From NCBI RefSeq assembly GCF_913019975.1, contig NZ_CAJWBH010000015.1: 64,000 nucleotides of DNA. One strand, written 5' to 3'. Source of the stretch: Thalassolituus maritimus. Lineage in GTDB: Bacteria > Pseudomonadota > Gammaproteobacteria > Pseudomonadales > Oceanobacteraceae. The notes below the pieces were generated by a model that saw nothing but the letters and a program-made list of their open reading frames with translations, did no database searches and had not been told where the DNA came from. Positions 10,501 through 37,435 of the stretch are shown one piece after another; the first letter of the stretch is position 1, and each line of letters starts with the position of its first letter. A program made the position numbers and the translations under genes.

Positions 10501-10539
10501 CGCTGACGTGTTGCTGTGACGTCTGATCTTGATAAGAAG

Positions 10540-10568
10540 AAGGGCTGAAAACTCAGCCCTTTTTATTT
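10540..10568 (+). terminator. intrinsic terminator between convergent genes
   Basis: aagggctga-aaac-tcagccctt followed by a T-rich tract. Confidence 0.7.
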
Positions 10569-10629
10569 CTGTCGCTTTGTATCTGTACTTCTATTTCAAC
10601 CCATTTGAATCCCGCGGTCACCTGTCGGT

Positions 10630-13053: not shown

Positions 13054-13261
13054 TGTCGCTCTGATGTCGCTTCTTTAATGAGGTACCCAGTTACAGTATT
13101 GCGCTCGCCGCAGTATGACAAGTCTGATTAGAGAAAAGCGCACACTGGTAAGCTCTGTCAGTTGCTTTTGTGCGGTTCTCGGGGATAATTCACGCTTTGT
13201 TGGCATCTGTTGCAAACAAAGTGTCATCGCAGTATTCAGAATGTGCAGTTAAGGTAGCTCC

Positions 13262-19499: not shown

Positions 19500-20168
19500 A
19501 TGGCTAACCATATATTCATTCTTGCTACCGTAATGCTTCTTGCAGGGATCTTCGGCGGTCTGGTGAACTTTTACCTCTACGGTGATAAAGATCCGGATTC
19601 GGCAAGTCTTCCGCGATTTCTGGTTGTAGGTGTGGGCGCATCGTTCCTGGTACCGGTTGTTCTGGATATGGTGAACAGCGAGCTGGTTCTTGAAAGTCAG
19701 GGCGACCCCTCTCAGCTACTCATTTTCACCGGTTTCTGTCTGGTTTCAGCGCTGCTGAGTCGCTTTGTTATCGACAATATGTCGGATCGGATTCTCAACG
19801 AAGCGAATGTTGCTCGTCAGCGTTCTGAAGAAGTCGAGCAGGATCTTCGTATTATTCAGAATGAGCTGCTCCCTCTGATTGATACTGAAACCGAAAAAGA
19901 CATGAGTGGTTACGATCCGCAGATGGCGAATGTGTCAGAAGAGCTGGACACAACCTCTACCCAAATCCTCAAAATTCTGTCCAACGGTCGGTATATCTTC
20001 CGCTCACTGGCAGGGGTGTGTCGTGAGTGCAATCAGGAAGAGTCGACAGTACTGAAAACACTGCACGTACTGACTACACGTAGCCTTGCAGGCAAGGTGA
20101 GTGGTAAGAATGGTGTGCGCTGGCACATCACAGAGAAAGGTCGTCGTGTTCTCGAAAATAGCCTCTGA
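19500..20168 (+). CDS. YEATS-associated three-TM (YLATT-like) protein with a C-terminal winged-helix-like region
   Basis: 'LLAGIFGGLVN..GVGASFLVP..IFTGFC..ALLSRFVIDNMSDRI' then a coiled coil and 'ILKILSNGRYIFRSLAGV..WHITEKGR'. Confidence 0.6.
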   Translation: MANHIFILATVMLLAGIFGGLVNFYLYGDKDPDSASLPRFLVVGVGASFLVPVVLDMVNSELVLESQGDPSQLLIFTGFCLVSALLSRFVIDNMSDRILNEANVARQRSEEVEQDLRIIQNELLPLIDTETEKDMSGYDPQMANVSEELDTTSTQILKILSNGRYIFRSLAGVCRECNQEESTVLKTLHVLTTRSLAGKVSGKNGVRWHITEKGRRVLENSL

Positions 20169-20228
20169 TTCTGATTGAGCTTGAACTTGAGCTTGAAGGT
20201 GACTGAGTTAAAGGGAGTCGGAGCTTTT

Positions 20229-22424: not shown

Positions 22425-22438
22425 CGCTTATATTATGA

Positions 22439-22460
22439 CCGCCTCCGGTACCGGAGGCGG
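22439..22460. terminator. perfect 22-bp palindrome / hairpin after the vWA gene
   Basis: ccgcctccggt-accggaggcgg; no long U tract. Confidence 0.55.
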
Positions 22461-22584
22461 CTTCTGTACAATTATCCCTTTCTGTCTGATTTTAAAGCCT
22501 TTTTCTGGTCCTGCCTTGCTGTACTAAAGCGGCCTCCTTATACTCTGGCCAGTCAAGAATCAGAGATCGAGAGGTTAAGTCCTG

Positions 22585-23427
22585 ATGAAATTCCAGGGTA
22601 CCGGTGAATACGTAGCGACACCTGAGCTGCAAATGGCAGTCAACGCAGCAATTACATTGCAGCGACCACTCCTGCTGAAAGGTGAGCCAGGAACCGGTAA
22701 AACAATGCTGGCAGAGCAACTGGCCACTTCATTGGGCACTGACCTTATCCAATGGCACATCAAGAGTACGACCAAGGCTCATCAGGGGCTCTATGAGTAC
22801 GATGCCGTCAGTCGTCTGCGCGACTCGCAACTTGGTGTTGATGGTGTCAATGATATTTCGAACTACATCGTTAAAGGTAAGCTCTGGGAAGCTTTTGAAG
22901 CGGATAAGCCTGTTGTTCTGCTGATCGACGAGATTGATAAAGCGGATATCGAGTTCCCGAACGACCTTCTTCTCGAAATCGATAAGATGGAGTTCTTCGT
23001 GTATGAAACTCAGGAGCGCATCGTTGCTAAGCACCGCCCAATTATTCTGATTACCAGCAATAACGAGAAAGAATTGCCTGACGCATTCCTGCGCCGCTGC
23101 TTCTTCCATTATATCGACTTCCCTGATCGCGAAACCATGAAGGCGATCGTTGATGTGCATTTCCCGAATATTCAGGCGGAGCTGGTCAATGACGCGCTTG
23201 AAGTCTTCTTTGACGTGCGCAAAGTACCGGGGCTGAAGAAAAAACCGTCAACTTCTGAACTGGTTGACTGGCTGAAGCTGCTGATGGCCGATGAACTCGG
23301 CGTCGAGTTATTACGTAATCACGATACTACCAAGGCAATTCCACCCATGGCGGGTGCTCTGGTGAAGAATGAGCAGGATGTGCACTTGCTGGAGCGTCTT
23401 GCGTTTATGAGTCGCCGTCGGGGCTGA
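22585..23427 (+). CDS. MoxR-family AAA+ ATPase
   Basis: KGEPGTGKT, LIDEIDKAD.EFPNDLL, TSNNEKELPDAFLRRC. Confidence 0.92.
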   Translation: MKFQGTGEYVATPELQMAVNAAITLQRPLLLKGEPGTGKTMLAEQLATSLGTDLIQWHIKSTTKAHQGLYEYDAVSRLRDSQLGVDGVNDISNYIVKGKLWEAFEADKPVVLLIDEIDKADIEFPNDLLLEIDKMEFFVYETQERIVAKHRPIILITSNNEKELPDAFLRRCFFHYIDFPDRETMKAIVDVHFPNIQAELVNDALEVFFDVRKVPGLKKKPSTSELVDWLKLLMADELGVELLRNHDTTKAIPPMAGALVKNEQDVHLLERLAFMSRRRG

Positions 23428-23429
23428 TC

Positions 23430-24611
23430 ATGCTGATCGACTTTTTCGATACGGTTCGTCGCGCAAAAGTACCTTGCTCGATTCGCGAGTACCTTGACCT
23501 CGTTGAGGCGGTTCAGGCGCGGGTAGCCTTTGCAGACCTTGAAGAGTTCTACGCGCTTGCACGTTTGATCCTTGTAAAGGACGAAAAGCACTACGATAAG
23601 TTCGACAAGGCCTTTGCCGCCTACTTTGAGGGTATTGAAGCACTGCCTTCATTGTTCGATGACGCCAGTATCCCTGCTGAATGGATGCGCAAAGAGATGG
23701 AGAAGCTGCTCTCTGAAGAGGAAATGGCGAAGATTGAATCGCTGGGCGGCTTCGATGAACTGATGAAAACCCTGCAGGAGCGCCTCGAAGAGCAGAAAAA
23801 GCGCCATCAGGGTGGAAATAAAATGATCGGTACAGGCGGAACATCACCGTTTGGTGCTGAAGGTTACAACCCGGAAGGGGTTCGTATTGATCAGAATCGT
23901 TCCCGTCATAAAAAAGCGGCGAAAGTATGGGAACAGAGAAATTACAAAAATCTCGATGACAATGTGCAGCTCGGTATACGGAACATCAAAGTAGCGTTGC
24001 GTCGTCTTCGTCGGTTTGCGCGCCAGGGTGCAGCCGATGAACTTGATATGAATGACACCATCAGTTCTACCGCGCGCAACGCAGGTATGCTCGACATTAA
24101 AATGGTTCCAGAACGGCATAACGCTGTGAAAGTACTGCTCTTTTTTGATGTCGGTGGGTCTATGGACCCTCACGTTCGTGTGTGCGAAGAGCTGTTCTCG
24201 GCTGCTCGTACCGAGTTCAAGCATATGGAAACCTTTTACTTCCATAACTGCCTGTATGAATCCGTCTGGAAGAATAATATCCGCCGTATGAACGAGCGCA
24301 CAGAAACATGGGACATTTTGCGCAAGTATGGACAGGATTACCGCGTTATCTTTGTGGGCGATGCCATGATGGCGCCGTATGAGGTAACTCATGCGGGAGG
24401 AAGCGTCGAACACTGGAATGAAGAGCCGGGCGCGGTCTGGATGGAACGCATGGCGAATCACTTCGATAAACTGGTCTGGTTGAACCCAGCGCCGGAAGAC
24501 CATTGGGGGAATGGCGGCTCGCTGGGGGCGATTCGTACATTGGTCAAAGATAAAATGTATCCCATGACCCTTTCAGGTCTTGAGGATGCTATGAGATTTC
24601 TCAGCAAATAG
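23430..24611 (+). CDS. vWA-domain (CoxE-like) partner of MoxR
   Basis: GTGGTSPFG, DVGGSMD, YFHNC, VGDAMMAPYE. Confidence 0.88.
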   Translation: MLIDFFDTVRRAKVPCSIREYLDLVEAVQARVAFADLEEFYALARLILVKDEKHYDKFDKAFAAYFEGIEALPSLFDDASIPAEWMRKEMEKLLSEEEMAKIESLGGFDELMKTLQERLEEQKKRHQGGNKMIGTGGTSPFGAEGYNPEGVRIDQNRSRHKKAAKVWEQRNYKNLDDNVQLGIRNIKVALRRLRRFARQGAADELDMNDTISSTARNAGMLDIKMVPERHNAVKVLLFFDVGGSMDPHVRVCEELFSAARTEFKHMETFYFHNCLYESVWKNNIRRMNERTETWDILRKYGQDYRVIFVGDAMMAPYEVTHAGGSVEHWNEEPGAVWMERMANHFDKLVWLNPAPEDHWGNGGSLGAIRTLVKDKMYPMTLSGLEDAMRFLSK

Positions 24612-24680
24612 CTGAAAATAGAAGTCGGAGGAGCTTGTCAGAGAGGGCAGGTTTCCCCGGAAAATAATAAAGAATGCAGG

Positions 24681-25400
24681 ATGTTTTACATGCAGGCGAT
24701 ACGCTTGTTTTCACCACTGCTGACATTGCTGATTGCTACAGGAATCACTCTTGGCGTTGTTAAGCCGGTTGCTGCTGAGCAGGTCTACATAGGCCTGCGC
24801 AATGGGCCGTCTGAGGCCTTTCCTGTCATCTACGAAGTCACCCCATATCGTCGCCTTGAGGTAGTCGCTCGTCGCGGTAGCTGGGTCAAGGCGACTGATG
24901 GGCGGAATAGCGGCTGGCTGCATGTCGATGACCTTCATCTGCTCGAAACCTTTCCCCGCGATGAACTCTGGAAGCTAGTTAATGACGCGCGCCCCGGGAA
25001 AAATCGACTCGAAGTGACCCTTTCAACCGCGAGCGCCTATTCCGTCGGATGGTTGTTTCCTGTCCTCGGAGAGTATGGCTCTGTGCGTTACACTCGCGCT
25101 CCAGAGGGTGATTCGGCGTGGTCAATGCTGGATGTTGGCATCGTTACTCAGTTCGCTCAACCAGCAGATTACTTAACCTTCAGTTGGAGCGCGTTTGCCG
25201 GTTATGCCCAGAGTGAGCGAGGCAATACACATTGGTCTGACACGGCTGAGCCTGTCTGGGTTGGTGCGGTAGGTGTTGAATCAATGTGGCGTGTTGCCCG
25301 GTATTTTGACTTTGGTGCTCGCGGCGAAGTAGGCACAGCACTTGACAGTGAAATGACAACCCACAGGTCTATGTCATTAGTTTGGAGATTACGTTTATGA
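24681..25400 (+). CDS. SH3b-domain exported protein with beta-barrel-like C-terminus
   Basis: Signal peptide; LRNGPSEAFPV..RRGSWVK..GWL SH3b pattern; alternating aromatic strands. Confidence 0.6.
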   Translation: MFYMQAIRLFSPLLTLLIATGITLGVVKPVAAEQVYIGLRNGPSEAFPVIYEVTPYRRLEVVARRGSWVKATDGRNSGWLHVDDLHLLETFPRDELWKLVNDARPGKNRLEVTLSTASAYSVGWLFPVLGEYGSVRYTRAPEGDSAWSMLDVGIVTQFAQPADYLTFSWSAFAGYAQSERGNTHWSDTAEPVWVGAVGVESMWRVARYFDFGARGEVGTALDSEMTTHRSMSLVWRLRL

Positions 25401-26005
25401 CTTCTTTTTTGCGGACGGTGGGGCTTGCTTGTATGGCGTTGTGTTCGCTCAGCGCTGCGGCAGAGGTGTTCAGTCCGGGCAGTCAGAGGAACGGTCTCGA
25501 TGATCTGAGTGAGACTGAAGTCGAACACGGTGTCTTCAGCGTAGGGTATTCCAATGCTCTGGCCTACAACAATGATCCGCAGCCGGGAATTCTGTTCACG
25601 GCGCGCTATTTTGCCGGTGAGAAATGGTATTTGCTGGGTGAGGCTCAGATTGGTCAGTTCAGTACGCGTGCCGTGATTAATGACGGCCAGGAAATACGAA
25701 GCGATGACGAAGAGCTGCTTCGTTACTCTGCGGGAGCGGGTTACGCGCTCCTTCAGGGGACCGCCAGCACCAGCGGAGTCCGTGCCGTGCCGTGGGTGCT
25801 CTCAGCGGAACTTAATGCAGGTGAACAACATTCCGGTGATACCAGTGGTCGTTATGCATCGCTAGGCATGAGCGTTCAGTTTCATGGTGACCGGATCTGG
25901 ACGGGGATAGGCGTGCGTGAGTTTCTGGTCGACGATGAGCGCCTTCAGTCTCTCGAATCTGATGGGGGCACACAGTGGGATATCTCACTCGGTTTGTATT
26001 ACTGA
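25397..26005 (+). CDS. putative small outer-membrane beta-barrel
   Basis: Signal peptide, amphipathic strands, C-terminal DISLGLYY; ATGA coupling. Confidence 0.55.
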   Translation: MTSFLRTVGLACMALCSLSAAAEVFSPGSQRNGLDDLSETEVEHGVFSVGYSNALAYNNDPQPGILFTARYFAGEKWYLLGEAQIGQFSTRAVINDGQEIRSDDEELLRYSAGAGYALLQGTASTSGVRAVPWVLSAELNAGEQHSGDTSGRYASLGMSVQFHGDRIWTGIGVREFLVDDERLQSLESDGGTQWDISLGLYY

Positions 26006-26469
26006 TCGGTCTGGCCCTGCATCTGCAGGCGTCTGAAAGTCTGAAACCGGGGGATATGGTTCCGGACTTTACGTTACCGGCGACGAACGGATTTGGTCAA
26101 AGACTCGAGGAAGCCCGTGGTTCTTATCTGATGTTGATATGGCTTGGAGACTGTGATGAATGTTCCGAGCGTCTCGTCAGATATCAGCTTCTTGCTGAGA
26201 GTCTGGAAATTGAAGGGTTGAAAGGATGGTTTGTCTGGACCCCGAAAGGAAAGCGGCAACCGCCCAATATGCGTATTCCAGTTCTGAAGTACGAGCCGAA
26301 ATGGCGTCAGGGTTGGGTGTTTGATGAGCGACCAGCGGTAATGTTAATTAATGCCGATGGGCGCCTTGATCACCTGATTACAGGTGATCTCAATGATAAT
26401 TATCAGGAAACTGAGCGGGTGGTTATGCGCTGGATGAGCCAGGGCCGTGACTATCAGCAACCGGAGTAG
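25975..26469 (+). CDS. exported redoxin (AhpC/TSA-TlpA fold) with CDEC
   Basis: LKPGDMVPDFTLPATNG; W.GDCDEC; PAVMLINADG; GTG start. Confidence 0.7.
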   Translation: MGYLTRFVLLIGLALHLQASESLKPGDMVPDFTLPATNGFGQRLEEARGSYLMLIWLGDCDECSERLVRYQLLAESLEIEGLKGWFVWTPKGKRQPPNMRIPVLKYEPKWRQGWVFDERPAVMLINADGRLDHLITGDLNDNYQETERVVMRWMSQGRDYQQPE

Positions 26470-26472
26470 ACA

Positions 26473-26970
26473 ATGAAATTTCTGTTAGTTCTGAGCATGC
26501 TGTTTGCCCCTGCCGTCATGGCGGAAGACGCAGCGGTACGTGAACAGGTGATGACAGCAAAAGAAGCGGTGCTTGAGCTAAATCGTGACCTCTATGAGCT
26601 GGAGCGGGAGCTTCTGAGCCCAGCTACGACTCGGGCGGCGTTTCATGTGACTCTTAACCATGGTGAATATTTTGAACCTCTGTCAGTTGAACTCTCGGTA
26701 GATGGCAAGCTTGAACTTCAGCATCTGTATACTGAACGTCAGGTAAAGGCCTTGCGTATGGGCGCGGTACAGCCGCTGGGTGATCTCAACCTTGCACCGG
26801 GCAAACATGAAGTGTCTGTAACTATTCGTGGTGTCGACCACCAGGGTCAGGGGCGTGAACTTGCGATCACTGAAATGATCAGCAAAACCGGTAAACCGCT
26901 TATCACAGAACTCCTGATCGTCGACCGGGATGACCTGCAGAGTGCACGATTACAGCTGAAGTACTGGTAA
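26473..26970 (+). CDS. hypothetical periplasmic protein (coiled coil + beta sandwich)
   Basis: Signal peptide AVMA; operon position. Confidence 0.7.
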   Translation: MKFLLVLSMLFAPAVMAEDAAVREQVMTAKEAVLELNRDLYELERELLSPATTRAAFHVTLNHGEYFEPLSVELSVDGKLELQHLYTERQVKALRMGAVQPLGDLNLAPGKHEVSVTIRGVDHQGQGRELAITEMISKTGKPLITELLIVDRDDLQSARLQLKYW

Positions 26971-26971
26971 T

Positions 26972-28942
26972 TTGATGCAGAGACTATTTCTTCTACTTCT
27001 GTTGGCTCCGCTGGCTTTGTTCAGTGTGGGCCTATACGCAGAGGGCTTGTCAGAAGACGATATCGATTTTGATCTTGATGATATCGAAGGTATCGGTGTC
27101 AACGAAGACGCTGAGAAACGACTTCTGCGCGGTAATTTTTATTATTCCTATCTCATCGGTGAGTATTACCAGACGCTTTACTATCTACGCGAATGGAAAG
27201 AGCTTATTGGTAGCGACACGACGCCAGAGACTGAAGCTGAAGTTATGAGGGCTGCCGTCTATCTGTCGCTGGGGTTGGAGGATCAGGCAGAAGATCTCTT
27301 TTACGCTGTATTTGAAGAGGGCGGAAGTGCATCTGGAGACGCCTGGTATTTTTTGACGCAACGTCTTTTCAACGCAGGTTTTTATGGTCGTGCAGAGCAG
27401 GCTGCACGGAATGCACTTGCTGCATCGCCTGCTCTCAGCCGACGTTATGATCAGGAGCTTTCTTACCTCCTGGCCAGTAGTATCAGTGAGCAGGACCGGG
27501 TAGAAGAAGCTCAGGTTGTAGTTAAGAGCATGGAAGACGCGAGTATCTGGACGGGTTACGCGCGCTACAACCTTATTCTGGCGATGGTTCGTCAGAATTT
27601 CAGAAGTCGCGACATCGAAGCGACCATCGATGAGGCAATTTTCTACTTACCAGACAACGAAGAAGGCACGGCTCTGCGTGATCGTATTCTGCTGATTTCT
27701 GGTATAGCTGCGATGGAGCGGGATAAGCACGCAATGGCTAATCGTTATTTTTCGGACGTGACGCTGGAATCTGTATTTACTCCGCCCGCCTTATTGCACC
27801 ACGGATGGAATCTTTTGGCTCAGTGGCGCTATGAAGATGCTATTCAGCCATGGCGTATCCTGCAGCAGCTTTACGATGAATATCATCCTGCGGTTGTTGA
27901 ATCCTACCTTGCAGTACCTCACACACTTGAGCTGGTCGATGCTGTCAATCAGTCTGTGCTTGCATATGAACGTGTTGAGGAACGCTTGACTGAGATGGTC
28001 GGGGAGCTGAAACAACTCAATCAGGAAGAGTCACTGGGAAATTGGCTACATGAGTGGCGCCAGTCAAATGAAGCTGAGAATTGGGGCTGGCAGAGACAGG
28101 CGCTTGGTGATCTGCCACAGAGCCAGGTAACGCGTTTTGCTCAGGGGTTACTGAAAGAAGAGGCGTTTACGCAAGAGTTAGCGCGCCTTCATGACCTTGA
28201 TCGTATCCGCGCTGACCTCGCAGAAGCGATGCGTGAGTTGACCTTGTGGGAAGATATCCTCGTCCAGCGCCGGGAAAATCTTGAAGCGATGGGGGGGGAG
28301 GCTCTGCTGGAACAACTGGAAGAGCGTCAGATGGATGTTCTTCGGAGCATTCTTGCTGTTCAGGACAGACTCCTGGACGAGGATGAAACGGTTTTCTCTT
28401 ACGCATCCAGAAGTGATGAAGCGCGAATCGAGCGTTTAAGAAGTGTCGTTCCTGCGGTTACTCTGCTCCAGAAAATAGGTACGCCGACCCGTGATCTCGC
28501 GCCATACAAAGAGCGCTGGCGGCGAATGAGGGGGCTGCAGCTCTGGTCGATATATGAAGCGCAGCCTCAACGTAAATGGGATACCGAGCGCGACCATATG
28601 ATATTGCGCTCTGAAACTGACAAGTTATTCCGTCAATTAGAGAATACGCGTACCTCCCTGATCTGGGCTGACAGTTCATGGCGCGGATTTCCTGAACGTG
28701 TCGGTCAGTTGCAGCAAAGAGTTGCCGCGCTGGACTCTGATGTCGCCGGGATCCAGCGTGATCAGGAAGCACTTCTCACAGAAATGACAAAACAGCATCT
28801 GACAGAGCTCGATGAACGCCTGACGCTTTATCTCGCACAGGCACGCCTGGCGCTGGCTCGGCTCTACGACGATTCACTACAGAATGAATTTGGCTCACTC
28901 GAATATGAGCCGGAAAATGAAAAACAGGAGGCGGTTAAGTAA
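26972..28942 (+). CDS. exported TPR and coiled-coil protein (GltC-like position)
   Basis: Signal peptide; TPR-like helices; C-terminal 'LAQARLALARLYD'. Confidence 0.7.
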   Translation: MMQRLFLLLLLAPLALFSVGLYAEGLSEDDIDFDLDDIEGIGVNEDAEKRLLRGNFYYSYLIGEYYQTLYYLREWKELIGSDTTPETEAEVMRAAVYLSLGLEDQAEDLFYAVFEEGGSASGDAWYFLTQRLFNAGFYGRAEQAARNALAASPALSRRYDQELSYLLASSISEQDRVEEAQVVVKSMEDASIWTGYARYNLILAMVRQNFRSRDIEATIDEAIFYLPDNEEGTALRDRILLISGIAAMERDKHAMANRYFSDVTLESVFTPPALLHHGWNLLAQWRYEDAIQPWRILQQLYDEYHPAVVESYLAVPHTLELVDAVNQSVLAYERVEERLTEMVGELKQLNQEESLGNWLHEWRQSNEAENWGWQRQALGDLPQSQVTRFAQGLLKEEAFTQELARLHDLDRIRADLAEAMRELTLWEDILVQRRENLEAMGGEALLEQLEERQMDVLRSILAVQDRLLDEDETVFSYASRSDEARIERLRSVVPAVTLLQKIGTPTRDLAPYKERWRRMRGLQLWSIYEAQPQRKWDTERDHMILRSETDKLFRQLENTRTSLIWADSSWRGFPERVGQLQQRVAALDSDVAGIQRDQEALLTEMTKQHLTELDERLTLYLAQARLALARLYDDSLQNEFGSLEYEPENEKQEAVK

Positions 28943-31749
28943 TGTTGCACCGTTTCATACTGTTAGTAATGTTCGTAGTAGTCAGCTCTGGCTGTAGTTG
29001 GTTTGGTAAAAAAGACGAACGTAAGTACCTGTCAGACATTGGTACGCTTACCGTTCGCACAGCGTCCGATGAACCTCTTGGAGTTGATCATCGTGATGTA
29101 ATTCGCAGCTATAAATCCTATCTCGAAGTGTCGACTGATCCTGAGTTGCGGGTTCGTGTGGCGCACCGCATTGCCGGCCTGAAACTGCAGTGGGACGAGA
29201 TCCGAATGGATCAGTTTGGTGATGATATCGATGCAATGGTCGAAGAAGACCGGGAAATGGCAGAGGCGTCGATTGGTGACTATGAAACTCTTCTTGAGCT
29301 CTATCCTGACCGCATAGACAACGACACCATCTACTATCAGCTGGCGAAAGCGTATTCGTTGGCTGGTCGACAGAATCAGGCCATCGCTGTGCTGGAAGAA
29401 TTAACTGAGCGCTACCCTGAGTCTATTTACTATCTTGAATCGCAATTCCGACTGGGAAGAATGCTTTATAACGTTAGTGATTTCGAAGCTTCGGAAAGTC
29501 GCTTCACCCAGGTCGTAGAGTTCGGTCCCGAAGGTAATCCGTATTACCTTGATGCGCAGTATTTCTGCGGCTGGGCATTGTTTAAGCAAAATCGACTGGA
29601 AGATAGTCTGCTCTCCTTTACGGAAATGATTGATGAACACTTCCCGGATGATGAAACGCTGATGGCCGCAGACGGAGCCGAACTGGAAGTATTGAATGAT
29701 ACGCTTCGGATCATGGCATTGATGTTTGATTATCTCGGCGACTGGAACGAAATTGCTCGTTTCTACGATGAACATGGAACCCGGTATTTCGAATATCGGA
29801 TTTATGCCGAACTGTCTAATCAGTATTACGAAAAGAAATACTTCAAAAGCTCGGCATCAACCCTTCGTGCATTTGTAGATCGTTTCCCAGATGACGATCG
29901 AGCCCCGCTTTATTATCGTCGTCTGATTTCAGGATATGAAAAAGCCGGTTATCCGATGCTGCGCAGAAAGCACAAAGAGGTCTTTATCGAACGTTTCGGT
30001 GTTGGTTCACCTTATTGGGAAACGCATGGTGAAGAAGTACGCACTCTGATCACCGTTGCTTTGGGCGACTATATCTGGGATCTCGCTACATTTGCGCACG
30101 GCTGGGGGCAGCAAACGAAATCAGCGAGTGACAAACGCGAGCGATTGGAGCAGGCCGCTGGCTGGTATCGTGAATATATCCGCTCATTTCCCAAGGCGCC
30201 GGATGCTGTAAAAGCACATTTTTTATTGGCTGAAATTTCATACGAAATCGGCAATTACGATGACGCGCGCAATAACTTTGAAATCGTTGCTTATCAGTAT
30301 CCTTTCTACGAAAACGCGGCAGAGGCTGGTTATGCAGCATTGTTGGCTTATAACAAATACAAGCCTACACCAGAGGAAGAGGCGCGCTGGCGCCAGCTGA
30401 CTGTAGCCAGTGCAAAACGTTTTGTGCTCGAATTTCCGCAGGATGAACGACGTGGAACCGTCTTGGTGAATACTGCAGAGATGCTTCTCGCGGATGAATA
30501 TTATGGCCAGGCGTTAACTACGGCCCGGCTTGCACAGGAAAGTGGTGTTGAACTGCCTCCGCGCTATTCTTACGGAGCGTCATTGGTGCAGGGGCATTCA
30601 GCCTTTGAGCTAGGGAAGTTTGAAGAAGCAGAAGCAGCGCTTCTTGCTGCCTCTGAGTATCCAGAGTTGAATCGTAAGCAGCGCGCTGATCTTCGCCAGA
30701 AGTCAGCGGCTGCAATTTATAAACAGGGCGAAGCTGCGCGGGAAGAAAATCCAGAAGAAGCCGTAGCGCAATGGTTGCGGCTGGCGGAAGTTGTGCCAGA
30801 GAGTGACCTCCGTGAGAATGCGGAATACGATGCCGCCACACTGTTGATGCAGATCGAAGATTTTGCCCGAGCTGAAGAGGTGCTTCTTGGGTTCCGTGAA
30901 AATCATCCGAACAGTAAATTCTCGAACGATATTCGTAGCAAACTAATTATTGCTTATGAAGGTCAGGGCGAGTGGCGACAGGCAGCCTTTGAACTGAAGA
31001 CTATCTCGGACTCTGGCACGGATGATGAGGAGAAACGAATCGCCGCTTTCCAGTCGGCGGAGTATTTCGAGAAGGCCGAGGATTACGATAACGCTATCGT
31101 AATGTATCGACGCTATGCACATACGTACAAACGTCCTTTTGATCCCGCTATTGAAGCCCACTATAAGCTTGATCAGATATACGCAAAACTAGGTGAAGAA
31201 GAAAAACGCCGTTTCTGGTTAGACAAAATTATCAGTCTCCATTCTCGTGCTGGCGATGATAGAACAGATCGATCTCGTTATCTGGCCTCTAAGGCGGCCT
31301 TTGAGTTGGGTGAGTTTGATCGGCGCCGCTTCGACGATATAGAAATAACTCTGCCTCTGGCGAAAAGTATTGTGCGTAAGAACAACGCTATGCAAGGGGC
31401 GCTTAAACGTTATACCCAGGCCGTTGAGATGGAAGTTCTGGAATTTACTACGCCTGCGACTTTCCATATTGGTGATATGTATGCCAAGTTCAGTCGCGGT
31501 TTGATGGAATCTGAACGTCCAGCGGGCATGGACGAACTCGAAGAAGAAGAATACACCTTCCTGCTCGAGGATCAGGCATTTCCTCTGGAAGAAGCTGCGA
31601 TTGATATTCATCAGACCAATATCAGCAGGACCTATGATGGCCTCTATGATGAATGGGTTAAGAAAAGTTTCCGGTCTATGGCTAGATTGATGCCGGGCCA
31701 ATACGACAAACAAGAAAAAGCGGTGACCTATGTTGATCAGATTCGCTAG
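28942..31749 (+). CDS. large TPR lipoprotein (GltD/AgmU-like)
   Basis: Lipobox SSGC; many TPRs (YYQLAKAY, AHFLLAEI); C-terminal 'LEDQAFPLEEAAIDIH'. Confidence 0.72.
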   Translation: MLHRFILLVMFVVVSSGCSWFGKKDERKYLSDIGTLTVRTASDEPLGVDHRDVIRSYKSYLEVSTDPELRVRVAHRIAGLKLQWDEIRMDQFGDDIDAMVEEDREMAEASIGDYETLLELYPDRIDNDTIYYQLAKAYSLAGRQNQAIAVLEELTERYPESIYYLESQFRLGRMLYNVSDFEASESRFTQVVEFGPEGNPYYLDAQYFCGWALFKQNRLEDSLLSFTEMIDEHFPDDETLMAADGAELEVLNDTLRIMALMFDYLGDWNEIARFYDEHGTRYFEYRIYAELSNQYYEKKYFKSSASTLRAFVDRFPDDDRAPLYYRRLISGYEKAGYPMLRRKHKEVFIERFGVGSPYWETHGEEVRTLITVALGDYIWDLATFAHGWGQQTKSASDKRERLEQAAGWYREYIRSFPKAPDAVKAHFLLAEISYEIGNYDDARNNFEIVAYQYPFYENAAEAGYAALLAYNKYKPTPEEEARWRQLTVASAKRFVLEFPQDERRGTVLVNTAEMLLADEYYGQALTTARLAQESGVELPPRYSYGASLVQGHSAFELGKFEEAEAALLAASEYPELNRKQRADLRQKSAAAIYKQGEAAREENPEEAVAQWLRLAEVVPESDLRENAEYDAATLLMQIEDFARAEEVLLGFRENHPNSKFSNDIRSKLIIAYEGQGEWRQAAFELKTISDSGTDDEEKRIAAFQSAEYFEKAEDYDNAIVMYRRYAHTYKRPFDPAIEAHYKLDQIYAKLGEEEKRRFWLDKIISLHSRAGDDRTDRSRYLASKAAFELGEFDRRRFDDIEITLPLAKSIVRKNNAMQGALKRYTQAVEMEVLEFTTPATFHIGDMYAKFSRGLMESERPAGMDELEEEEYTFLLEDQAFPLEEAAIDIHQTNISRTYDGLYDEWVKKSFRSMARLMPGQYDKQEKAVTYVDQIR

Positions 31750-32572
31750 TGCGTTACTGATTCTATTATTGAGCGCCTGTGCGTCGAATAGGCCTGTAAT
31801 CCAGGATTCGGCAGAATTTGGCCCTGATGGTCAGCCCGTTGCTGAACCTCTTCCAGAGGGGTTTGAAAACGAATACCGTAATGGTTTGTCGCTTATGGAA
31901 GACGAACGCTTTGATGAGGCCTTGCAGCACTGGGCAGATATGTCAGTTGTTTTTGGTCAGTATCCGGGAGTGTGGAGTAACCTGGGACTCGCGCATTATC
32001 AGCGAGGCAATTATGAAGAGGCCGTCTCTGCTTATGAGCAGGTTGAAACTATAGACCCGACTTTTTGCCCGGTTCATGCGTTGAGCGGTGTAGCTTATCG
32101 TGAATTGGGGCGTTTTGATGATGCTCAAGCGAGTTATTACGCCGCCATTGATTGTGATCCCGATGACGGGCGTCACTATTATAATCTAGGTATTCTTCTG
32201 GATCTGTATCGTAACGACCTTGAAAGCGCGCTTGAATTTTATCGCAAGGCGCGTCGATTAATGCCGGATAACGAGCAGTTAAATATCTGGGTGATAGACC
32301 TTGCGCGTCGAGTCGGTGTCGACGAGGCTGATCCGGCGAGTGTTGATGAGTGGTATAGCTCGTTAAAAGCACCCGCCGACGAAACTACGGATGCGGTTAT
32401 ACAAGGCCAGGTAACCGACATTAATGCTTCAGAGGGTGTTATTGATGCAGAAGACTCTCAGGAAGTAGCACCCGCTGATGATGCGGTTATGCCTGAAGAG
32501 GCGGGTGAAGCCCCTGCCTCCCCTGAAACAGCAACTCCTGATCAAGGCACGGTCGAAGAGGAGGCATTATGA
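31730..32572 (+). CDS. TPR lipoprotein (GltE/AglT-like)
   Basis: Lipobox LSAC; SNLGLAHY, YNLGILLDLY; acidic tail. Confidence 0.72.
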   Translation: MLIRFASALLILLLSACASNRPVIQDSAEFGPDGQPVAEPLPEGFENEYRNGLSLMEDERFDEALQHWADMSVVFGQYPGVWSNLGLAHYQRGNYEEAVSAYEQVETIDPTFCPVHALSGVAYRELGRFDDAQASYYAAIDCDPDDGRHYYNLGILLDLYRNDLESALEFYRKARRLMPDNEQLNIWVIDLARRVGVDEADPASVDEWYSSLKAPADETTDAVIQGQVTDINASEGVIDAEDSQEVAPADDAVMPEEAGEAPASPETATPDQGTVEEEAL

Positions 32573-32883
32573 GATATCTGATAGCTTTGCTCATACCTCT
32601 GATGCTTATAAGTACAGAAGTGCTCTCTGCTGATGACGATGTTGTCCGTCTACAGGGCATGACAATTCGTGGAAATAGCGAAAACCCGAATGTCCTCTAT
32701 ATTAATGCCTGGCAGCCGCCTCCCGGAACGGGGCGGCTGTATGAACCAGTTACCAGCTTCAACCGTCACTGGTTTCGACCATTAACCCGTGACAGTCTGA
32801 AACGAGAGATACGTTATGGTAAGCGTTACAACGAAAAAGAGGATCACGTCACAAGGCTAAACGAAGTCCTCGAAATACAGTGA
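32569..32883 (+). CDS. small exported protein (GltF-like)
   Basis: Signal peptide; 'LQGMTIRGNSENPNVLYI'; lies between the TPR gene and exbB. Confidence 0.6.
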   Translation: MRYLIALLIPLMLISTEVLSADDDVVRLQGMTIRGNSENPNVLYINAWQPPPGTGRLYEPVTSFNRHWFRPLTRDSLKREIRYGKRYNEKEDHVTRLNEVLEIQ

Positions 32884-32985
32884 GCTGCGGTTTTTTCTGC
32901 AGAGAAATAATGGTTAAATCAGCCCGTGTGCAGCTTAATGAGCTGCCTATCAGAACAACAATAGTATCAGAACCGGAGATATCCA

Positions 32986-33642
32986 ATGGATTCCATCATT
33001 CGCTTCCTTCAGGAAGGTGGTGTGTTTATGTACCCGATTGCAATCATCATGGTAATCGGTCTCGCTGTCGCAATTGAGCGTTTGCTCGTCCTCGCAAAAG
33101 AAAAGTCGGGTAACCGTCGTGCTTTCGATGAGATGTACCCTATGCTGCAGAAACGTGATCTGCGCTCAGCACTCAACTACGCCAATAGCTCTGATACTCA
33201 TATCGCTAATATCTTTGCCGCTGGCATCCAGCGTATCCCGACTGCTCAACGTCGTGAAGAGGTTGAGTACGCATTGGAAGAAGGTCTGATGGAAGCGATT
33301 CCTCAGTTGGAGAAGCGTACGCCGTACATCGCGACACTTGCTAATATTGCAACCCTGATGGGCCTGCTGGGTACCATTATGGGTCTTATTGCGGCATTTA
33401 CCGCAGTAGCCAGCGCACCGGCTGCGGAAAAGGCTGAACTGCTATCGCAAAGTATTTCCGTTGCGATGAACACAACAGCATTTGGTCTGATTGCAGCCAT
33501 TCCACTGATTCTGCTTCACAGCTACCTGCAGACCAAAACATCTGAAATCGTCGACAGCATCGAGATGGCGGGCGTTAAGTTCCTAAATACCATCACGGAT
33601 AAAAAGGCAGGACAAAACGGCACTCCTTCAAATAACGGTTAA
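32986..33642 (+). CDS. MotA/TolQ/ExbB proton-channel protein (AglR-like)
   Basis: GGVFMYPI..IER; ATLMGLLGTIMGLIAAF; ISVAMNTTAFGL. Confidence 0.92.
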   Translation: MDSIIRFLQEGGVFMYPIAIIMVIGLAVAIERLLVLAKEKSGNRRAFDEMYPMLQKRDLRSALNYANSSDTHIANIFAAGIQRIPTAQRREEVEYALEEGLMEAIPQLEKRTPYIATLANIATLMGLLGTIMGLIAAFTAVASAPAAEKAELLSQSISVAMNTTAFGLIAAIPLILLHSYLQTKTSEIVDSIEMAGVKFLNTITDKKAGQNGTPSNNG

Positions 33643-33656
33643 TCAGGAGTCGTTCG

Positions 33657-34166
33657 ATGAGACGCCATAAGAAAATCAGAGAAGAGGCGGAACTCAACGT
33701 AACATCCTTCATGAACCTGATGATCGTACTGGTACCTGTGCTGTTGATGAACATGGTTTTTTCACAGCTGGCCGTACTGGATCTCAGGTTACCTTCTGGC
33801 GATGAGCCAGGTGCCGTTAACCCGGAGGATGTCACGCTTGAAGTGACGATCAGGAAGACAGGATTCACTCTCTCCCGGACCTATCAGGAAGAGACAGTTG
33901 AACTGGCTTCTATTCCTGCTCAGTCCGGAGAACTTGACTACGAAGGTCTTTCAAAGGCCCTTCAGAACGCCAAGAAGAATCCTGAGTTTGCAGAAAAAAG
34001 AGATATTACACTGCTCGCAGAGCCCAATACGGATTACCAGACACTGGTGACTGTGATGGACACGGTTCGCATTTACCCTGCCGTGGTAGCTGCGTCCCTG
34101 GTTGATGCTGTGCTGTTCCCGGATATTTCTCTGGGTGAAGCAGAAGCGCAGGAGGTGGCACCATGA
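33657..34166 (+). CDS. ExbD/TolR-family protein (TM Asp replaced by Asn)
   Basis: ELNVTSFMNLMIVLVPVLL; LLAEPNTDYQTLVTVMD. Confidence 0.85.
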   Translation: MRRHKKIREEAELNVTSFMNLMIVLVPVLLMNMVFSQLAVLDLRLPSGDEPGAVNPEDVTLEVTIRKTGFTLSRTYQEETVELASIPAQSGELDYEGLSKALQNAKKNPEFAEKRDITLLAEPNTDYQTLVTVMDTVRIYPAVVAASLVDAVLFPDISLGEAEAQEVAP

Positions 34167-34657
34167 AAATGTCACGTCGCGCTAAGCGCATGCAGCGTAA
34201 CCATAAACGTAATGCCAATAAAAACGGTCTGAATCTGACAGCCCTGATGGATATTTTCACCATTCTGGTGTTCTTCCTCATGGTGAATCAGTCAGAGGTG
34301 GAAGTGCAGAACACGGATAGCGTCGAGCTCCCTGTTTCTGTGTCAGAGAACAAGCCTGAGGAGCAACTGACAGTTCTGGTGACGGATACAGATCTGCTTG
34401 TGCAGGGACGTTCAGTAGCGCAACTGTCAGCGATTAAACAGGGTGAAGAAGAAATTATTCCTTCATTGCTCTCTGAACTTGAATATCAGGCCAGCCGTAC
34501 GCCAATCGCGGAAGGGGAAGACAGCCGTCCGGTAACGATTGTGGGTGACAAGGCAACGGAATACTCAGTTCTTAAAAGAATTATGAGTACCTGTGCCGAG
34601 TCTGGCTTTGCCAATATCTCACTGGCGGTAAACCAGAAGCAGCCGGGAGGTGCGTGA
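34163..34657 (+). CDS. ExbD/TolR-family protein (AglS-like)
   Basis: LNLTALMDIFTILVFFL; IVGDKATEYSVLKRIMSTC..GF. Confidence 0.88.
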   Translation: MKMSRRAKRMQRNHKRNANKNGLNLTALMDIFTILVFFLMVNQSEVEVQNTDSVELPVSVSENKPEEQLTVLVTDTDLLVQGRSVAQLSAIKQGEEEIIPSLLSELEYQASRTPIAEGEDSRPVTIVGDKATEYSVLKRIMSTCAESGFANISLAVNQKQPGGA

Positions 34658-35622
34658 TGAGTAGTATTTATCGCACTCCTGAGTTGCCGTGGACCGATGG
34701 CGAAGATGGTCGCCGCTTGTGGATGATCCTGGGCGTCCTGCTGGCATTGATGTTGTTGGTTGGTGTCGTGGTTCCGTTTATTGATCTGCCTGAAAAAGAC
34801 AGGTCTGAACTTGAGGAGCTGCCGCCGCAACTGGCCAAGGTCATTGAGCGTAAGAAGCTCGAGCTTCCTAAACCAAAGCCCGAGCCGAAGCCTCAACCTA
34901 AACCCGAGCCTAAGCCGGAACCCGAGCCCGAGCCGAAACCTGAACCTAAGCCTGAGCCAAAACCTCAGCCAAAGCCGGAACCTAAACCTAAACCCGAGCC
35001 TAAGCCGAAAGTTGAAGCAACAGAGCAGCAGCGTCAGGCAGCCAAGCAGAAAGCACGTGATGCAGTGGGTACCGAGGCACTTCAGGCTTTGAGTGACTTG
35101 CGTTCGGCGATTCCTACCACGGCACTGAGCACTTCAAGTTCGTCGCTCAGTACCAAAGGAACTCAGGCGACTAACGTCGGCTCAGTAGTGGATCGCACAG
35201 CGGCGAGCCGGGGTTCTGGTGGTGTTGATGTAGCATCGCTGACTAATGTTACGTCAGGAGAGAACCTTGGTGATCGCGCGACAACGACGGTTGAGGTGGC
35301 CGCAGAGGCGGTTGCCGCAGCAGAAGAGTCGAAGAAACGTAGCCAGGAAGAGCTCAGGCTGGTGTTTGAGGCATACAACGTACACTATGACAGGTTGTAT
35401 CGCCGGGCTTTACGTAAGAATCCAACGCTCGAGGGCTCTGTAACTCTTGCGCTGACGATTCAGCCGGATGGCTCAGTGACTTCCTGTAAAGCTGCGAAGA
35501 GCGAAATTAAAGACGCTCGACTGATCCGCAGTGTTGAACTCAAATGTCAGCAAATGGCGTTTGAAAGTCGACCTAACGTCGAGGTTACTAAGGTGGAATA
35601 TCCAATCCGCTTTAACCCTTGA
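34654..35622 (+). CDS. TonB-like energy transducer with AgmX/PglI-type C-terminal domain (GltG-like)
   Basis: N-terminal TM, PKPEP repeats, 'RS.EEL..VF....LY.RALRKNPTLEGSVTL.LTI.PDGSV'. Confidence 0.8.
   Translation: MMSSIYRTPELPWTDGEDGRRLWMILGVLLALMLLVGVVVPFIDLPEKDRSELEELPPQLAKVIERKKLELPKPKPEPKPQPKPEPKPEPEPEPKPEPKPEPKPQPKPEPKPKPEPKPKVEATEQQRQAAKQKARDAVGTEALQALSDLRSAIPTTALSTSSSSLSTKGTQATNVGSVVDRTAASRGSGGVDVASLTNVTSGENLGDRATTTVEVAAEAVAAAEESKKRSQEELRLVFEAYNVHYDRLYRRALRKNPTLEGSVTLALTIQPDGSVTSCKAAKSEIKDARLIRSVELKCQQMAFESRPNVEVTKVEYPIRFNP
34867..35010 (+). repeat. Pro-Lys/Pro-Glu coding repeat (periplasm-spanning linker)
   Basis: Degenerate cctaaacc/gagcc repeats encoding PKPKPEPKPQP... Confidence 0.85.
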
Positions 35623-35629
35623 TACCCAG

Positions 35630-35656
35630 AAGCCCGGCAGATGCCGGGCTTTTTTT
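35630..35656 (+). terminator. intrinsic terminator closing the Agl/Glt-like operon
   Basis: aagcccggca-ga-tgccgggctt plus T tract. Confidence 0.85.
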
Positions 35657-35755
35657 ATCCGTATCGGATACTGGCCCACTTGACGCAATGCCGCTAAACT
35701 CGAATGCAACGATGTCGGTTTACGCCGCAGATAATTTCAGTGAATGGAGATAGAG

Positions 35756-37435
35756 ATGAACGAACAGTTTTTCCAGGAGCGTTACCCCGAGGGGTATCCA
35801 AAGACAGTCAACGTTAATGAGTTTTCGTGCATTACCGAAATCTTTGATGGTTTCGTTAAAAAGTACGCTGAACTGCCAGCGTTTACATGTCTCGGGCAGA
35901 CTATGACGTATGCCCAGCTGGATGAAAAAAGTGCTGCGTTCGCCTCTTTCCTTCAGAATGAAACGTCCCTTCAGGCAGGTGATCGTATTGCGGTTCAGCT
36001 GCCGAATGTACTGCAATACCCGGTCGTCGTTTTTGGTGCCATGCGTGCAGGGATTACCGTGGTGAATACCAATCCGCTGTATACAGAGCGTGAAATGGAA
36101 CACCAGTTTAACGACTCTGGCGCGAAAGCTTTGGTCGTTCTAGCGAACTTTGGCGATAAAGTTGAACGTGTTCTGCCTAAAACAGGCATTAAGCATGTTA
36201 TTGTGACTAATGTTGGCGATATGCATTGCCCACTGAAAAGAACTCTGATTAACACAGTGCTTAAGTACGTGAAGAAGGAGGTGCCTGCAGCAAATATCCC
36301 AGGCGCCATTCCGTTGCGTAAAGCGCTCAGCAAAGGTAAGGGCAAGCCTTACACCAGCGCCCCCGCAACTTCTGATGATATCGCAGTACTGCAATATACG
36401 GGGGGCACTACAGGCGTCGCAAAAGGCGCAATGCTTACCCATGGCAACCTGATGGCTAATATGGCCCAGGCATATGGTGTATTCAAACAGGTTATGAACG
36501 AGGGTGAGGAGACGGTAATCTGTCCTTTGCCTCTTTATCATATCTACGCGTTTACCATGCACTGCATGGTGCTTCTCCAGACTGGCAATCACAGCATCCT
36601 GATCCCGAATCCTCGCGATATCCCGGGCTTTATTAAGACGCTGCAGAAAACAGACTTCACTGGATTTGTGGGGCTTAACACTCTGTTTGTGGCGCTTTGC
36701 GCTCAGGAAGATTTCCGTGCTCTGGACTTCAGTAAACTCAAGCTGACTGTGTCAGGTGGTATGGCGCTGACCAAAGCTGCCTTTGATGAATGGAAAGCGG
36801 TGACAGGGTGTGAAGTGGCTGAAGGTTACGGCATGACCGAAACCTCGCCAGTCGTATCCTTTAACCCGACCACACGCATCAAGCAGGGCACCATTGGTAT
36901 GCCTGTTGCGAATACAGCCTGCATGGTGATCGACGAAGAAGGTAATGAGTTGCCCCTCGGAGAAGCTGGTGAACTGTGTGTGAAAGGACCTCAGGTCATG
37001 AAGGGCTACTGGCAGCGTCCTGAAGCGACTGAAGAAACAATGACCAAAGACGGGTGGTTGAAGACGGGTGACATGGCCGTTATCAACGACGATGGCTACC
37101 TCAAAATCGTTGACCGTAAGAAAGATATGATCATCGTCTCTGGCTTTAATGTCTATCCCAACGAAGTGGAGGACGTTATTGTTTCCCATAAAGACATTGT
37201 TGAAGCAGCTGCTATTGGTATACCAGACCCTAAAAGCTCTGAGGCCGTGAAAGTGTTTATTGTCCGGAGCAACCCATCGCTCACGGAGAAAGATGTTATT
37301 GCCTTCTGTCGAGAGAATCTCACCGCGTACAAAGTGCCTAAGATCGTTGAGTTCCGTGACGAGCTGCCGAAGACGAATGTTGGTAAGATCCTGCGTCGTG
37401 AGCTTCGTGACGAGGAGCTGGCCAAGCACAAATAA
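35756..37435 (+). CDS. fadD: long-chain-fatty-acid--CoA ligase
   Basis: LQYTGGTTGVAKG, EGYGMTETSP, TGD, DRKKDMI, PKTNVGK; GGAGA SD favours ATG 35756 over 35744. Confidence 0.92.
   Translation: MNEQFFQERYPEGYPKTVNVNEFSCITEIFDGFVKKYAELPAFTCLGQTMTYAQLDEKSAAFASFLQNETSLQAGDRIAVQLPNVLQYPVVVFGAMRAGITVVNTNPLYTEREMEHQFNDSGAKALVVLANFGDKVERVLPKTGIKHVIVTNVGDMHCPLKRTLINTVLKYVKKEVPAANIPGAIPLRKALSKGKGKPYTSAPATSDDIAVLQYTGGTTGVAKGAMLTHGNLMANMAQAYGVFKQVMNEGEETVICPLPLYHIYAFTMHCMVLLQTGNHSILIPNPRDIPGFIKTLQKTDFTGFVGLNTLFVALCAQEDFRALDFSKLKLTVSGGMALTKAAFDEWKAVTGCEVAEGYGMTETSPVVSFNPTTRIKQGTIGMPVANTACMVIDEEGNELPLGEAGELCVKGPQVMKGYWQRPEATEETMTKDGWLKTGDMAVINDDGYLKIVDRKKDMIIVSGFNVYPNEVEDVIVSHKDIVEAAAIGIPDPKSSEAVKVFIVRSNPSLTEKDVIAFCRENLTAYKVPKIVEFRDELPKTNVGKILRRELRDEELAKHK

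Follow-up and report, generated by a model that had tools for sequence, protein, structure and literature searches.

An Agl-Glt-type core operon with small outer membrane barrels in Thalassolituus maritimus, probably a stationary energizer of the outer membrane

Luciano et al. (2011; PLoS Genet 7:e1002268) described gltC, gltD, gltE, gltG, aglR, aglQ, and aglS, together with one additional gene, as a "core complex" and reported the core cluster in several Gammaproteobacteria, one betaproteobacterium, Geobacter, and Fibrobacter, stating its function as unknown. According to the same study, the core genes alone are insufficient for motility and are present in nongliding bacteria. The relationship of such clusters to the Agl-Glt machinery of Myxococcus has therefore been known since 2011; that survey did not include Thalassolituus. 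Here, we describe a 12-gene operon on the plus strand, at positions 24681-35622, of a 64,000-nucleotide stretch of Thalassolituus maritimus contig NZ_CAJWBH010000015.1 (referred to below, at its full length, as the window). This operon probably represents a gammaproteobacterial ancestral-type Agl-Glt core complex with an added outer membrane module, acting as a stationary Ton/Tol-like energizer of the outer membrane.

The first-pass annotation of the window, made from the sequence alone, had described 12 genes of one orientation, most of them overlapping, with a strong terminator at the end. All 12 open reading frames (ORFs) were recovered at the coordinates it gave, the terminator was found as a hairpin with a U tract, and the domain calls for all genes were reproduced by family scans and by inspection of signal peptides and lipoboxes. 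Junctions between the genes are overlaps or gaps of at most 14 nt, except for 102 nt upstream of the gene for the ExbB-like protein P9. The features are as follows (TPR, tetratricopeptide repeat; OM, outer membrane; aa, amino acids):

P1, 24681..25400, plus strand: exported protein with N-terminal SH3b domain and C-terminal small OM beta-barrel of the OMP_myx_plus type
P2, 25382..26005, plus strand: small OM beta-barrel of the OMP_myx_plus family with C-terminal aromatic residue
P3, 25975..26469, plus strand: exported thioredoxin-fold protein (TlpA/AhpC-like) with CXXC motif (CDEC), divergent in the genus
P4, 26473..26970, plus strand: exported protein of 165 aa, predicted to combine a long helix at the N terminus with an 8-strand beta-sandwich
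P5, 26972..28942, plus strand: periplasmic GltC-like protein of 656 aa with N-terminal TPR region and helical C-terminal half
P6, 28942..31749, plus strand: GltD-like TPR OM lipoprotein of 935 aa, the putative central scaffold
P7, 31730..32572, plus strand: GltE-like TPR OM lipoprotein of 280 aa with an acidic low-complexity tail
P8, 32569..32883, plus strand: small exported protein of 104 aa, the additional gene of the published core, in the GltF slot
P9, 32986..33642, plus strand: AglR-like proton-channel subunit of the TolQ/ExbB/MotA family, 218 aa
P10, 33657..34166, plus strand: first ExbD/TolR paralog, in the AglQ slot, 169 aa, with Asn in place of the proton-binding transmembrane Asp
P11, 34163..34657, plus strand: second ExbD/TolR paralog, in the AglS slot, 164 aa, with the transmembrane Asp
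P12, 34654..35622, plus strand: GltG-like TonB-type transducer, 322 aa
Intrinsic terminator, 35628..35656, plus strand: closes the operon; 11-bp GC-rich stem, 4-nt loop, and U7 tract

P5 to P12 follow the order GltC-GltD-GltE-additional gene-AglR-AglQ-AglS-GltG, which is identical to that of the published core in Marinobacter aquaeolei (Maqu_1595-1602), Hahella (HCH_02626-02634), and Cellvibrio (CJA_3313-3319). Table S3 of Luciano et al. gives order and sizes for Marinobacter, Hahella, Cellvibrio, Saccharophagus, Shewanella, and Teredinibacter; the product lengths in the window (656, 935, 280, 104, 218, 169, 164, and 322 aa) are nearly identical to those published, for which the table has ranges of 550-692, 933-1016, 162-263, no entry for the additional gene, 205-272, 169-188, 162-185, and 321-334 aa. 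The first-pass annotation had likened the arrangement to GltD/E/F/G plus AglR/Q/S. The order holds, but the published core is GltC/D/E/G plus AglRQS, and GltC had gone unnamed, P5 being listed simply as a TPR protein; given the composition of the published core, P5 is its GltC counterpart. Compared with the published gammaproteobacterial core, the window operon has three more genes upstream, encoding two OMP_myx_plus barrels and a thioredoxin-like protein, and includes P4, a constant member here that the published list omits. P6 has relatives in 559 or more species-level genomes; most of these belong to Gammaproteobacteria and some to Burkholderiales, and Marinobacter, Hahella, Cellvibrio, and Methylibium are among them. 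Since the P4-P12 order is kept in most of 166 related loci, the arrangement lies far beyond chance.

The TPR proteins carry the relationship to Glt. P6 has the lipobox VSSGC with Ser at position +2 and matches multiple TPR families, and P7 has the lipobox LLSAC, a TPR_1 match (3e-21), and a match to the GltE model NF033758 (4.4e-9) that falls below the model cutoff. Families built around the window proteins were aligned by hhalign with slot families from 80 Myxococcota loci surrounding a GltC paralog (MXAN_1919-1924 type), so that the direct comparators are these paralogs, not GltC/D/E/G or AglRQS themselves. P6 aligned with the GltD-paralog family (MXAN_1922 type) at 100% probability (E = 1.9e-76, 861 columns), P12 with the GltG-paralog family at 99.8% (E = 9.5e-30, 293 columns), P7 with the GltE-paralog family at 99.7% (E = 3.3e-26, 216 columns), and P5 with the GltC-paralog family at 98.9% (E = 1.2e-17, 471 columns). 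P5 reached only 7e-8 and 9e-10 with the D and E families, and the off-diagonal cross-matches among TPR families in general (1e-7 to 1e-10) were 7 to 69 orders of magnitude weaker than the diagonal. Members of the Myxococcota paralog families themselves match NF033756 and NF033758. One comparator locus, L220 of Myxococcus eversor, adjoins mglB-mglA, encodes products matching the curated GltC, GltE, GltG, and AgmX/PglI models, and corresponds to MXAN_1919-1923 in Table S3 of Luciano et al. P5, P6, and P7 are thus related specifically to the GltC, GltD, and GltE families and not just as generic TPR proteins.

The M. xanthus cluster MXAN_1919-1924, which adjoins mglBA, is collinear with the window operon as X244-C-D-E-F-G, with profile-level homology in each slot. 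Some Myxococcota paralog clusters carry an AglRQS-like motor between F and G, as the window operon does, whereas most lack an in-cluster motor. The Myxococcus paralog proteins are larger (C, ca. 800 aa; D, ca. 1,110 aa; E, ca. 490 aa; G, 447 aa with an N-terminal extension). A bridge from the gammaproteobacterial to the Myxococcota families was provided by locus L010 (positions 5065-13056), from a metagenome-assembled genome of an unclassified bacterium, which holds divergent Glt-type genes (GltC-, GltD-, and GltE-like) in the gammaproteobacterial order; an OMP_myx_plus barrel is encoded 4 kb upstream of them. A protein search with the GltC-like protein of this locus yielded nothing but unnamed TPR proteins, none of them a Myxococcus entry. 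An exhaustive profile search with its family gave 150 full-length matches from Myxococcota, all so similar to the query that M. xanthus GltC itself lay out of reach.

The motor genes seem to point in the same direction. P9 is a MotA_ExbB protein (E = 7.7e-29), and it matched the ExbB-like genes inside Glt-type clusters of five Myxococcota loci (L206, L209, L219, L228, and L246) with 216 bits (E = 2.5e-64). In these loci, the ExbB/ExbD/ExbD genes lie between the E and G genes, giving the order X-C-D-E-F-AglR-Q-S-G. The scores of P9 with solved structures were 43 bits for TolQ and 37 bits for ExbB, and with the curated equivalogs 70.2 bits for TolQ (cutoff, 221) and 47.7 bits for ExbB (TIGR02797; cutoff, 206.2). 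P10 and P11 both match ExbD (2.8e-15 and 5.4e-16) and scored 19-28 bits with the ExbD equivalogs (cutoffs, 123-216) and 30-35 bits with TolR (cutoff, 127). The motor thus combines one TolQ/ExbB-like subunit with two distinct TolR/ExbD-like subunits, and these differ at a functional position. Among the homologs from loci L011-L088, P10-type proteins carry Asn in place of the proton-binding transmembrane Asp in 52 of 68 cases, the remaining 16, mostly in Steroidobacteraceae-type loci, having Asp, while the transmembrane Asp of P11 is present in 67 of 67. Because the same split between the two paralogs recurs in the in-cluster motors of the five Myxococcota loci, there seems to be a single protonatable Asp in the plug of motors of this clade. 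Sequence searches of the PDB found no Agl or Glt structure.

Tol-Pal and TonB-ExbBD share with the operon the family of 5:2-type inner membrane channels driven by the proton motive force and a Pro-rich, inner membrane-anchored transducer with a fold like that of the TonB C-terminal domain. One alternative would therefore be a Tol-Pal-like paralog serving envelope integrity or OM tethering and constriction, for instance under particular growth conditions, with no specific cargo. The best curated matches of P9 (TolQ) and of P10 and P11 (TolR) favor it, as do the TPR repeats of P6, several stretches of which resemble the CpoB/YbgF model of Tol-Pal systems (80 bits; cutoff, 90). In addition, no cargo gene is evident in the operon, and reviews treat Agl-Glt and Tol-Pal as mechanistically of one class (PMC5349195). 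However, all Tol equivalog scores are far below their cutoffs, two different ExbD-type subunits, one usually lacking the Asp, take the place of the TolR homodimer, and the link to the Glt families is much stronger than that to Tol. Family scans of the operon products detected no TolB or Pal domain, and no TolA-type domain III is present. The operon's own barrels, joined elsewhere by a DUF3570 barrel and a beta-propeller protein, point instead to a dedicated OM module. We consider a Tol-like role of this kind rather unlikely.

P12 begins with a short cytoplasmic tail (about 21 residues ahead of the membrane) and a single transmembrane helix; a spacer rich in Pro, Glu, and Lys and a linker rich in Ser, Thr, and Ala then lead to an AgmX/PglI C-terminal domain that scored 55.9 bits with NF033768 (cutoff, 40). 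With one transmembrane helix, a Pro-rich region, and this C-terminal domain, P12 has the predicted makeup of a GltG-type protein; the GltJ model NF033761 matched just its C-terminal domain (21.7 bits). An ordinary TonB-ExbB-ExbD energizer for receptors encoded elsewhere, such as those for iron or alkane-related uptake, would also use a transducer with a TonB-like Pro-rich spacer, and P12 does pass the generic TonB C-terminal model TIGR01352 (28.4 bits; cutoff, 27.1). Some bacteria carry several TonB systems with accessory TPR proteins. P12 nevertheless remains below the cutoff of Pfam TonB_C (22.6; cutoff, 24.6), whereas its AgmX/PglI domain exceeds its own, and its scores with the TonB equivalogs (40-50 bits; cutoffs, 265-315) and TolA (21; cutoff, 59) are low, as is the ExbB equivalog score of P9. 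Unlike TonB and TolA, which have an SHLS motif in their transmembrane helix, P12 has no His in this helix. Neither the operon nor any of the large ORFs of the window was found to encode a TonB-dependent receptor, and the linkage of the motor to GltC/D/E-type TPR proteins is invariant across the 166 loci. A proteome study ties a TonB-dependent receptor of Thalassolituus oleivorans to growth on long-chain alkanes, but it makes no mention of this cluster (PMC6304351). An ordinary TonB role is therefore very improbable.

Since P9 scored 216 bits against the in-cluster motors of Myxococcota and 43 bits against TolQ structures, the system appears to be neither an ordinary Ton nor an ordinary Tol system. 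The first-pass annotation had reported no TonB-dependent receptor and no Pal/TolB, which the family scans confirmed, and had named two outcomes that would tell against an Agl/Glt relationship: grouping of the proteins with ordinary Ton or Tol systems, and TPR genes unrelated to Glt. Neither was observed, P5, P6, and P7 pairing with the C, D, and E families with reciprocal specificity, and the Agl/Glt reading therefore stands.

The Agl-Glt gliding machinery of M. xanthus shares with the operon the class of motor, in which a TolQ-like channel is combined with two TolR-like subunits that differ from each other, a GltG that is TonB-like and carries an AgmX/PglI domain, the TPR lipoproteins GltD and GltE, periplasmic GltC, and paralogous small OM barrels encoded beside gltC. 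Homology to the Glt C/D/E/G families and Agl-type motors, and the two barrels in the gltB/gltA position, could accordingly be taken to indicate a working gliding machine, and Thalassolituus lives on oil droplets and surfaces. The two systems differ on the cytoplasmic side, however: GltG has about 330 cytoplasmic residues with two FHA domains (PMC11761067), which dock on GltI, and the Myxococcus machinery is coupled to AglZ/MglA/MreB, whereas the tail of P12 is short and gave no FHA domain match. Pfam and NCBIfam scans of the operon products likewise gave no match to GltH, GltI, GltJ, GltK/CglC, CglB, or AglZ. The FHA, GltI/J/H/K, CglB, and AglZ-type parts make the Myxococcus complex mobile and adhesive. 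Moreover, disruption of MXAN_1922, in the closest Myxococcus paralog cluster, leaves gliding intact, and the insufficiency of the core genes for motility and their presence in nongliders argue in the same direction. That the operon encodes a working gliding machine like that of Myxococcus is highly doubtful, and gliding by this operon is unlikely because the cytoplasmic and adhesin parts of such a machine are absent from it. The term "complete" used in the first-pass annotation consequently fits the ancestral core plus two OM barrels, and does not extend to the GltG FHA domains or to in-operon GltH/I/J/K, CglB, and AglZ. Likewise, its proposal of an envelope machine driven by the proton motive force is supported in its Agl/Glt-type part, while surface motility becomes the least likely of the functions it listed, since these components are missing.

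Upstream of the core, P1 to P3 appear to form an OM module. P1 has a signal peptide and an SH3_3 match (E = 1.3e-5); in its family, 11 of 17 members match TIGR04565 (best E = 5.5e-11) and 11 of 17 an SH3 model, and the homolog in locus L029 matches SH3_3 (1e-10) and OMP_b-brl (3.9e-10). The P2 protein of the window matches TIGR04565 with E = 5.5e-4, as do 14 of the 17 members of its family (best E = 5.6e-52), and the last residue is F or Y in every member of the family alignment. As the P1 barrel aligned with P2 (hhalign, 95.1%; E = 3.3e-8), the two are predicted to be paralogous small OM barrels of the OMP_myx_plus family. P3 shows a weak AhpC-TSA/Redoxin match (E = 2.6e-4) with the CDEC motif; both CXXC cysteines are retained in 48 of 56 homologs, the one in locus L029 is a clear AhpC/TSA protein (E = 8e-33), and P3 is located upstream of P4 in about 58 loci. 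In Myxococcus, GltB and GltA are paralogous barrels that are encoded directly upstream of gltC and bind GltC (PMC4488436; PMC11761067). P1 and P2 are likewise a barrel pair upstream of a GltC-like gene, a likeness of position and paralogy. None of P1, P2, and P3 matched any Myxococcota slot family by hhalign, and the P2 family did not match two single ORFs of locus L010.

In other taxa, the upstream module includes a beta-propeller/HZS_alpha protein, the ORF X172, P1, P2, a bona fide AhpC/TlpA-like P3, and a DUF3570 barrel. A 15-gene form of the operon is found in many Burkholderiales, Alteromonadaceae, and other loci (L029, 1125-7162; L068, 937-7463; and about 30 more), where a beta-propeller protein of about 870 aa (PD40 plus an HZS_alpha middle domain, with a weak cytochrome c motif), the 172-aa ORF X172, and a DUF3570 barrel of about 415 aa are added upstream of P4. 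The beta-propeller protein, the 172-aa ORF, and the DUF3570 barrel are all missing from the Thalassolituus operon, which has a reduced version of this larger upstream module.

P4 and P8 are near-universal members of the cluster, P4 being absent from the published list. P4, which has no Pfam or NCBIfam match, is encoded directly 5' of the GltC-like gene in 78 loci. Its AlphaFold2 model (predicted local distance difference test score, 85) shows a long helix and an 8-strand beta-sandwich, for which comparison with PDB folds returned just generic immunoglobulin/transthyretin-like beta-sandwich matches (template modeling score, ≤0.45) and no specific relative. By hhalign, P4 aligned with an ORF family that precedes the GltC paralog in Myxococcota (X244; 94.9%, E = 4.3e-8, 155 columns). 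Homologs of P4 (P0315-P0402) are named "AraC family transcriptional regulator" or "cell division protein FtsB" in public sources; these names do not fit exported proteins made of a helix and a beta-sandwich. P8, which also lacks a Pfam or NCBIfam match, was found in 79 loci and aligned with a small-ORF family that occupies the E-G slot in 56 of 80 Myxococcota loci (94.2%, E = 1.1e-7, 89 columns). In M. xanthus, this slot is taken by MXAN_1920, given as a GltF homolog by Luciano et al. (2011), who had said that the additional gene of the core has no myxobacterial homolog. P8 might, quite tentatively, be regarded as GltF-like.

The operon is homologous to and collinear with Glt/Agl-type clusters, its products carry predicted localization signals, and gliding-specific parts are absent from it. 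For the stationary energizer that we favor, TolQR, ExbBD, and an AlphaFold model of the Myxococcus Agl-Glt complex suggest an arrangement in which five copies of P9 would surround a P10/P11 heterodimer in the inner membrane, and protons would flow via the single invariant Asp of P11, driving a conformational or rotary cycle. P12 would be anchored beside the motor, with its Pro-rich spacer crossing the periplasm and its AgmX/PglI domain docking on the OM-anchored TPR scaffold P6, which in turn might carry P7, P5, P4, and P8. P5 could hold periplasmic extensions of the small barrels P1 and P2, and the energy of the proton motive force would in this way be delivered to an OM platform. Because P12 has no cytoplasmic FHA domains and the operon has no GltI/J, AglZ, or CglB-type adhesin, the complex should be stationary and should not travel along the cell. 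Its output would most likely be the exposure, release, or remodeling of a surface component, energized in a Ton/Tol-like manner; secretion or exposure of such a component has already been suggested by the Mignot group as the output of the core. The Agl-Nfs spore-coat machinery of M. xanthus, which has a Glt-like A-H set and a motor of the same kind, works on a surface polymer and not on movement (PMC3858216) and shows, by analogy, that this architecture can serve nonmotility outputs. It differs in that the window operon has no neighboring genes for polysaccharide synthesis or export, and there is no evidence of sporulation in the host.

Several points weigh against this reading. The comparators were Myxococcota paralogs of the gliding proteins; the GltC/GltE equivalog cutoffs were not reached by the TPR proteins of the window, single-sequence NCBIfam and Pfam scans of P5 and P6 gave no Glt match, their matches to the GltC model being negative or marginal, and only 1 of 35 members of the P5 family matched NF033756 (GltC), marginally. 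The links of P4 and P8 to Myxococcota are weak (about 94-95% probability, E of about 1e-7) and partly positional. Hidden Markov models of P1 and P2 found no barrel homolog in the 80 Myxococcota loci, and the parallel to GltB/GltA is one of position and paralogy. All protein-protein contacts and the 5:2 stoichiometry are drawn by analogy. No experiment on any gammaproteobacterial member was found, papers up to 2020-2025 call the function unknown, and literature searches for the locus tags of known gammaproteobacterial clusters found nothing. The operon does appear to be expressed in situ, and its presence in full at 100% identity in two marine metatranscriptome assemblies (runs X8 and X13; window 23400-36400) is compatible with expression, but these contigs read through the terminator and may contain DNA.

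A broader reading can be put forward as a tentative possibility. The ancestral Agl-Glt unit may have more members than have been described and may work as a stationary TonB-like machine for secretion or exposure. It would comprise nine conserved genes, encoding P4, GltC/D/E, P8 as a GltF-like protein, an AglRQS motor in which just one Asp binds protons, and GltG (P4-P12), plus an optional OM module of two OMP_myx_plus barrels equivalent to GltB/GltA and a TlpA-like oxidoreductase, elsewhere with the DUF3570 barrel and the beta-propeller protein. A proton-driven pull of P12 on the TPR scaffold would then open or reorganize the P1/P2 platform, exposing or releasing a surface component, which in Thalassolituus could be an adhesin or a surface factor for hydrophobic substrates. 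If true, this would identify the original function behind the evolution of gliding and spore-coat assembly.

What the widespread proteobacterial Agl-Glt core does has been a standing question since 2011, one that bears on the origin of the gliding and spore-coat machines of Myxococcus. New in this work are a genus outside the 2011 survey, P4 and P8 as constant members with same-slot counterparts in Myxococcota, the paralogous barrel pair, and the Asn/Asp asymmetry of the ExbD-type subunits. The host is a cultivable, nongliding marine hydrocarbon degrader, and the compact single-operon version with candidate OM partners offers a convenient test system for a stationary Agl-Glt-type motor.

The 3' end of the operon is well marked. 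The terminator stem at 35628-35653 reads AGAAGCCCGGC/GCCGGGCUUUU, followed by a U tract up to 35656, and folds with a ΔG of -20 kcal/mol (z = -4.86), none of 200 shuffled sequences being as stable; a pattern-based promoter/terminator scanner missed it, and the hairpin was revealed by folding. The 5' boundary is softer, as P1 starts only 69 nt past a co-oriented upstream gene and the scanner found no promoter-like site in this gap. In run X13, the contig with P7-P12 has about twice the depth of that with P1-P5, which may point to an internal start within P7 or 5' of it, contig depth being a poor measure. The identity of the window to T. maritimus is about 98%, that of the 935-aa P6 to its counterpart in T. 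maritimus DSM 24913 also being 98%, and a blastn search of the motor genes against plasmids returned only noise from Pro-rich repeats.

Directly upstream and co-oriented (window 19500-24611) are genes for a YLATT three-transmembrane protein, an exported VWA protein of 749 aa anchored by a C-terminal transmembrane segment, an AAA ATPase of the MoxR type, and a VWA protein of the CoxE type. These genes also flank the system in Marinobacter (L145, L148, and L150) and Bermanella (L113), with FadD-HrpA downstream. A functional link between these genes and the operon was considered and set aside: they adjoin the system in only 13 of 166 loci, all from related Oceanospirillales and Marinobacter, and the housekeeping genes downstream are conserved alongside, so that shared chromosomal synteny is the simpler and probable explanation. 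Elsewhere in the window, an unusual fusion is encoded on the minus strand at 44355-45662, a DAHP synthase (DAHP_synth_1, E = 1e-80) whose N-terminal residues 2-63 match the P22_Cro DNA-binding domain (E = 5.8e-11). A FadL/TodX-family OM transporter (54052-55740; E = 8e-63), unrelated to the operon, fits the hydrocarbon-degrading host.

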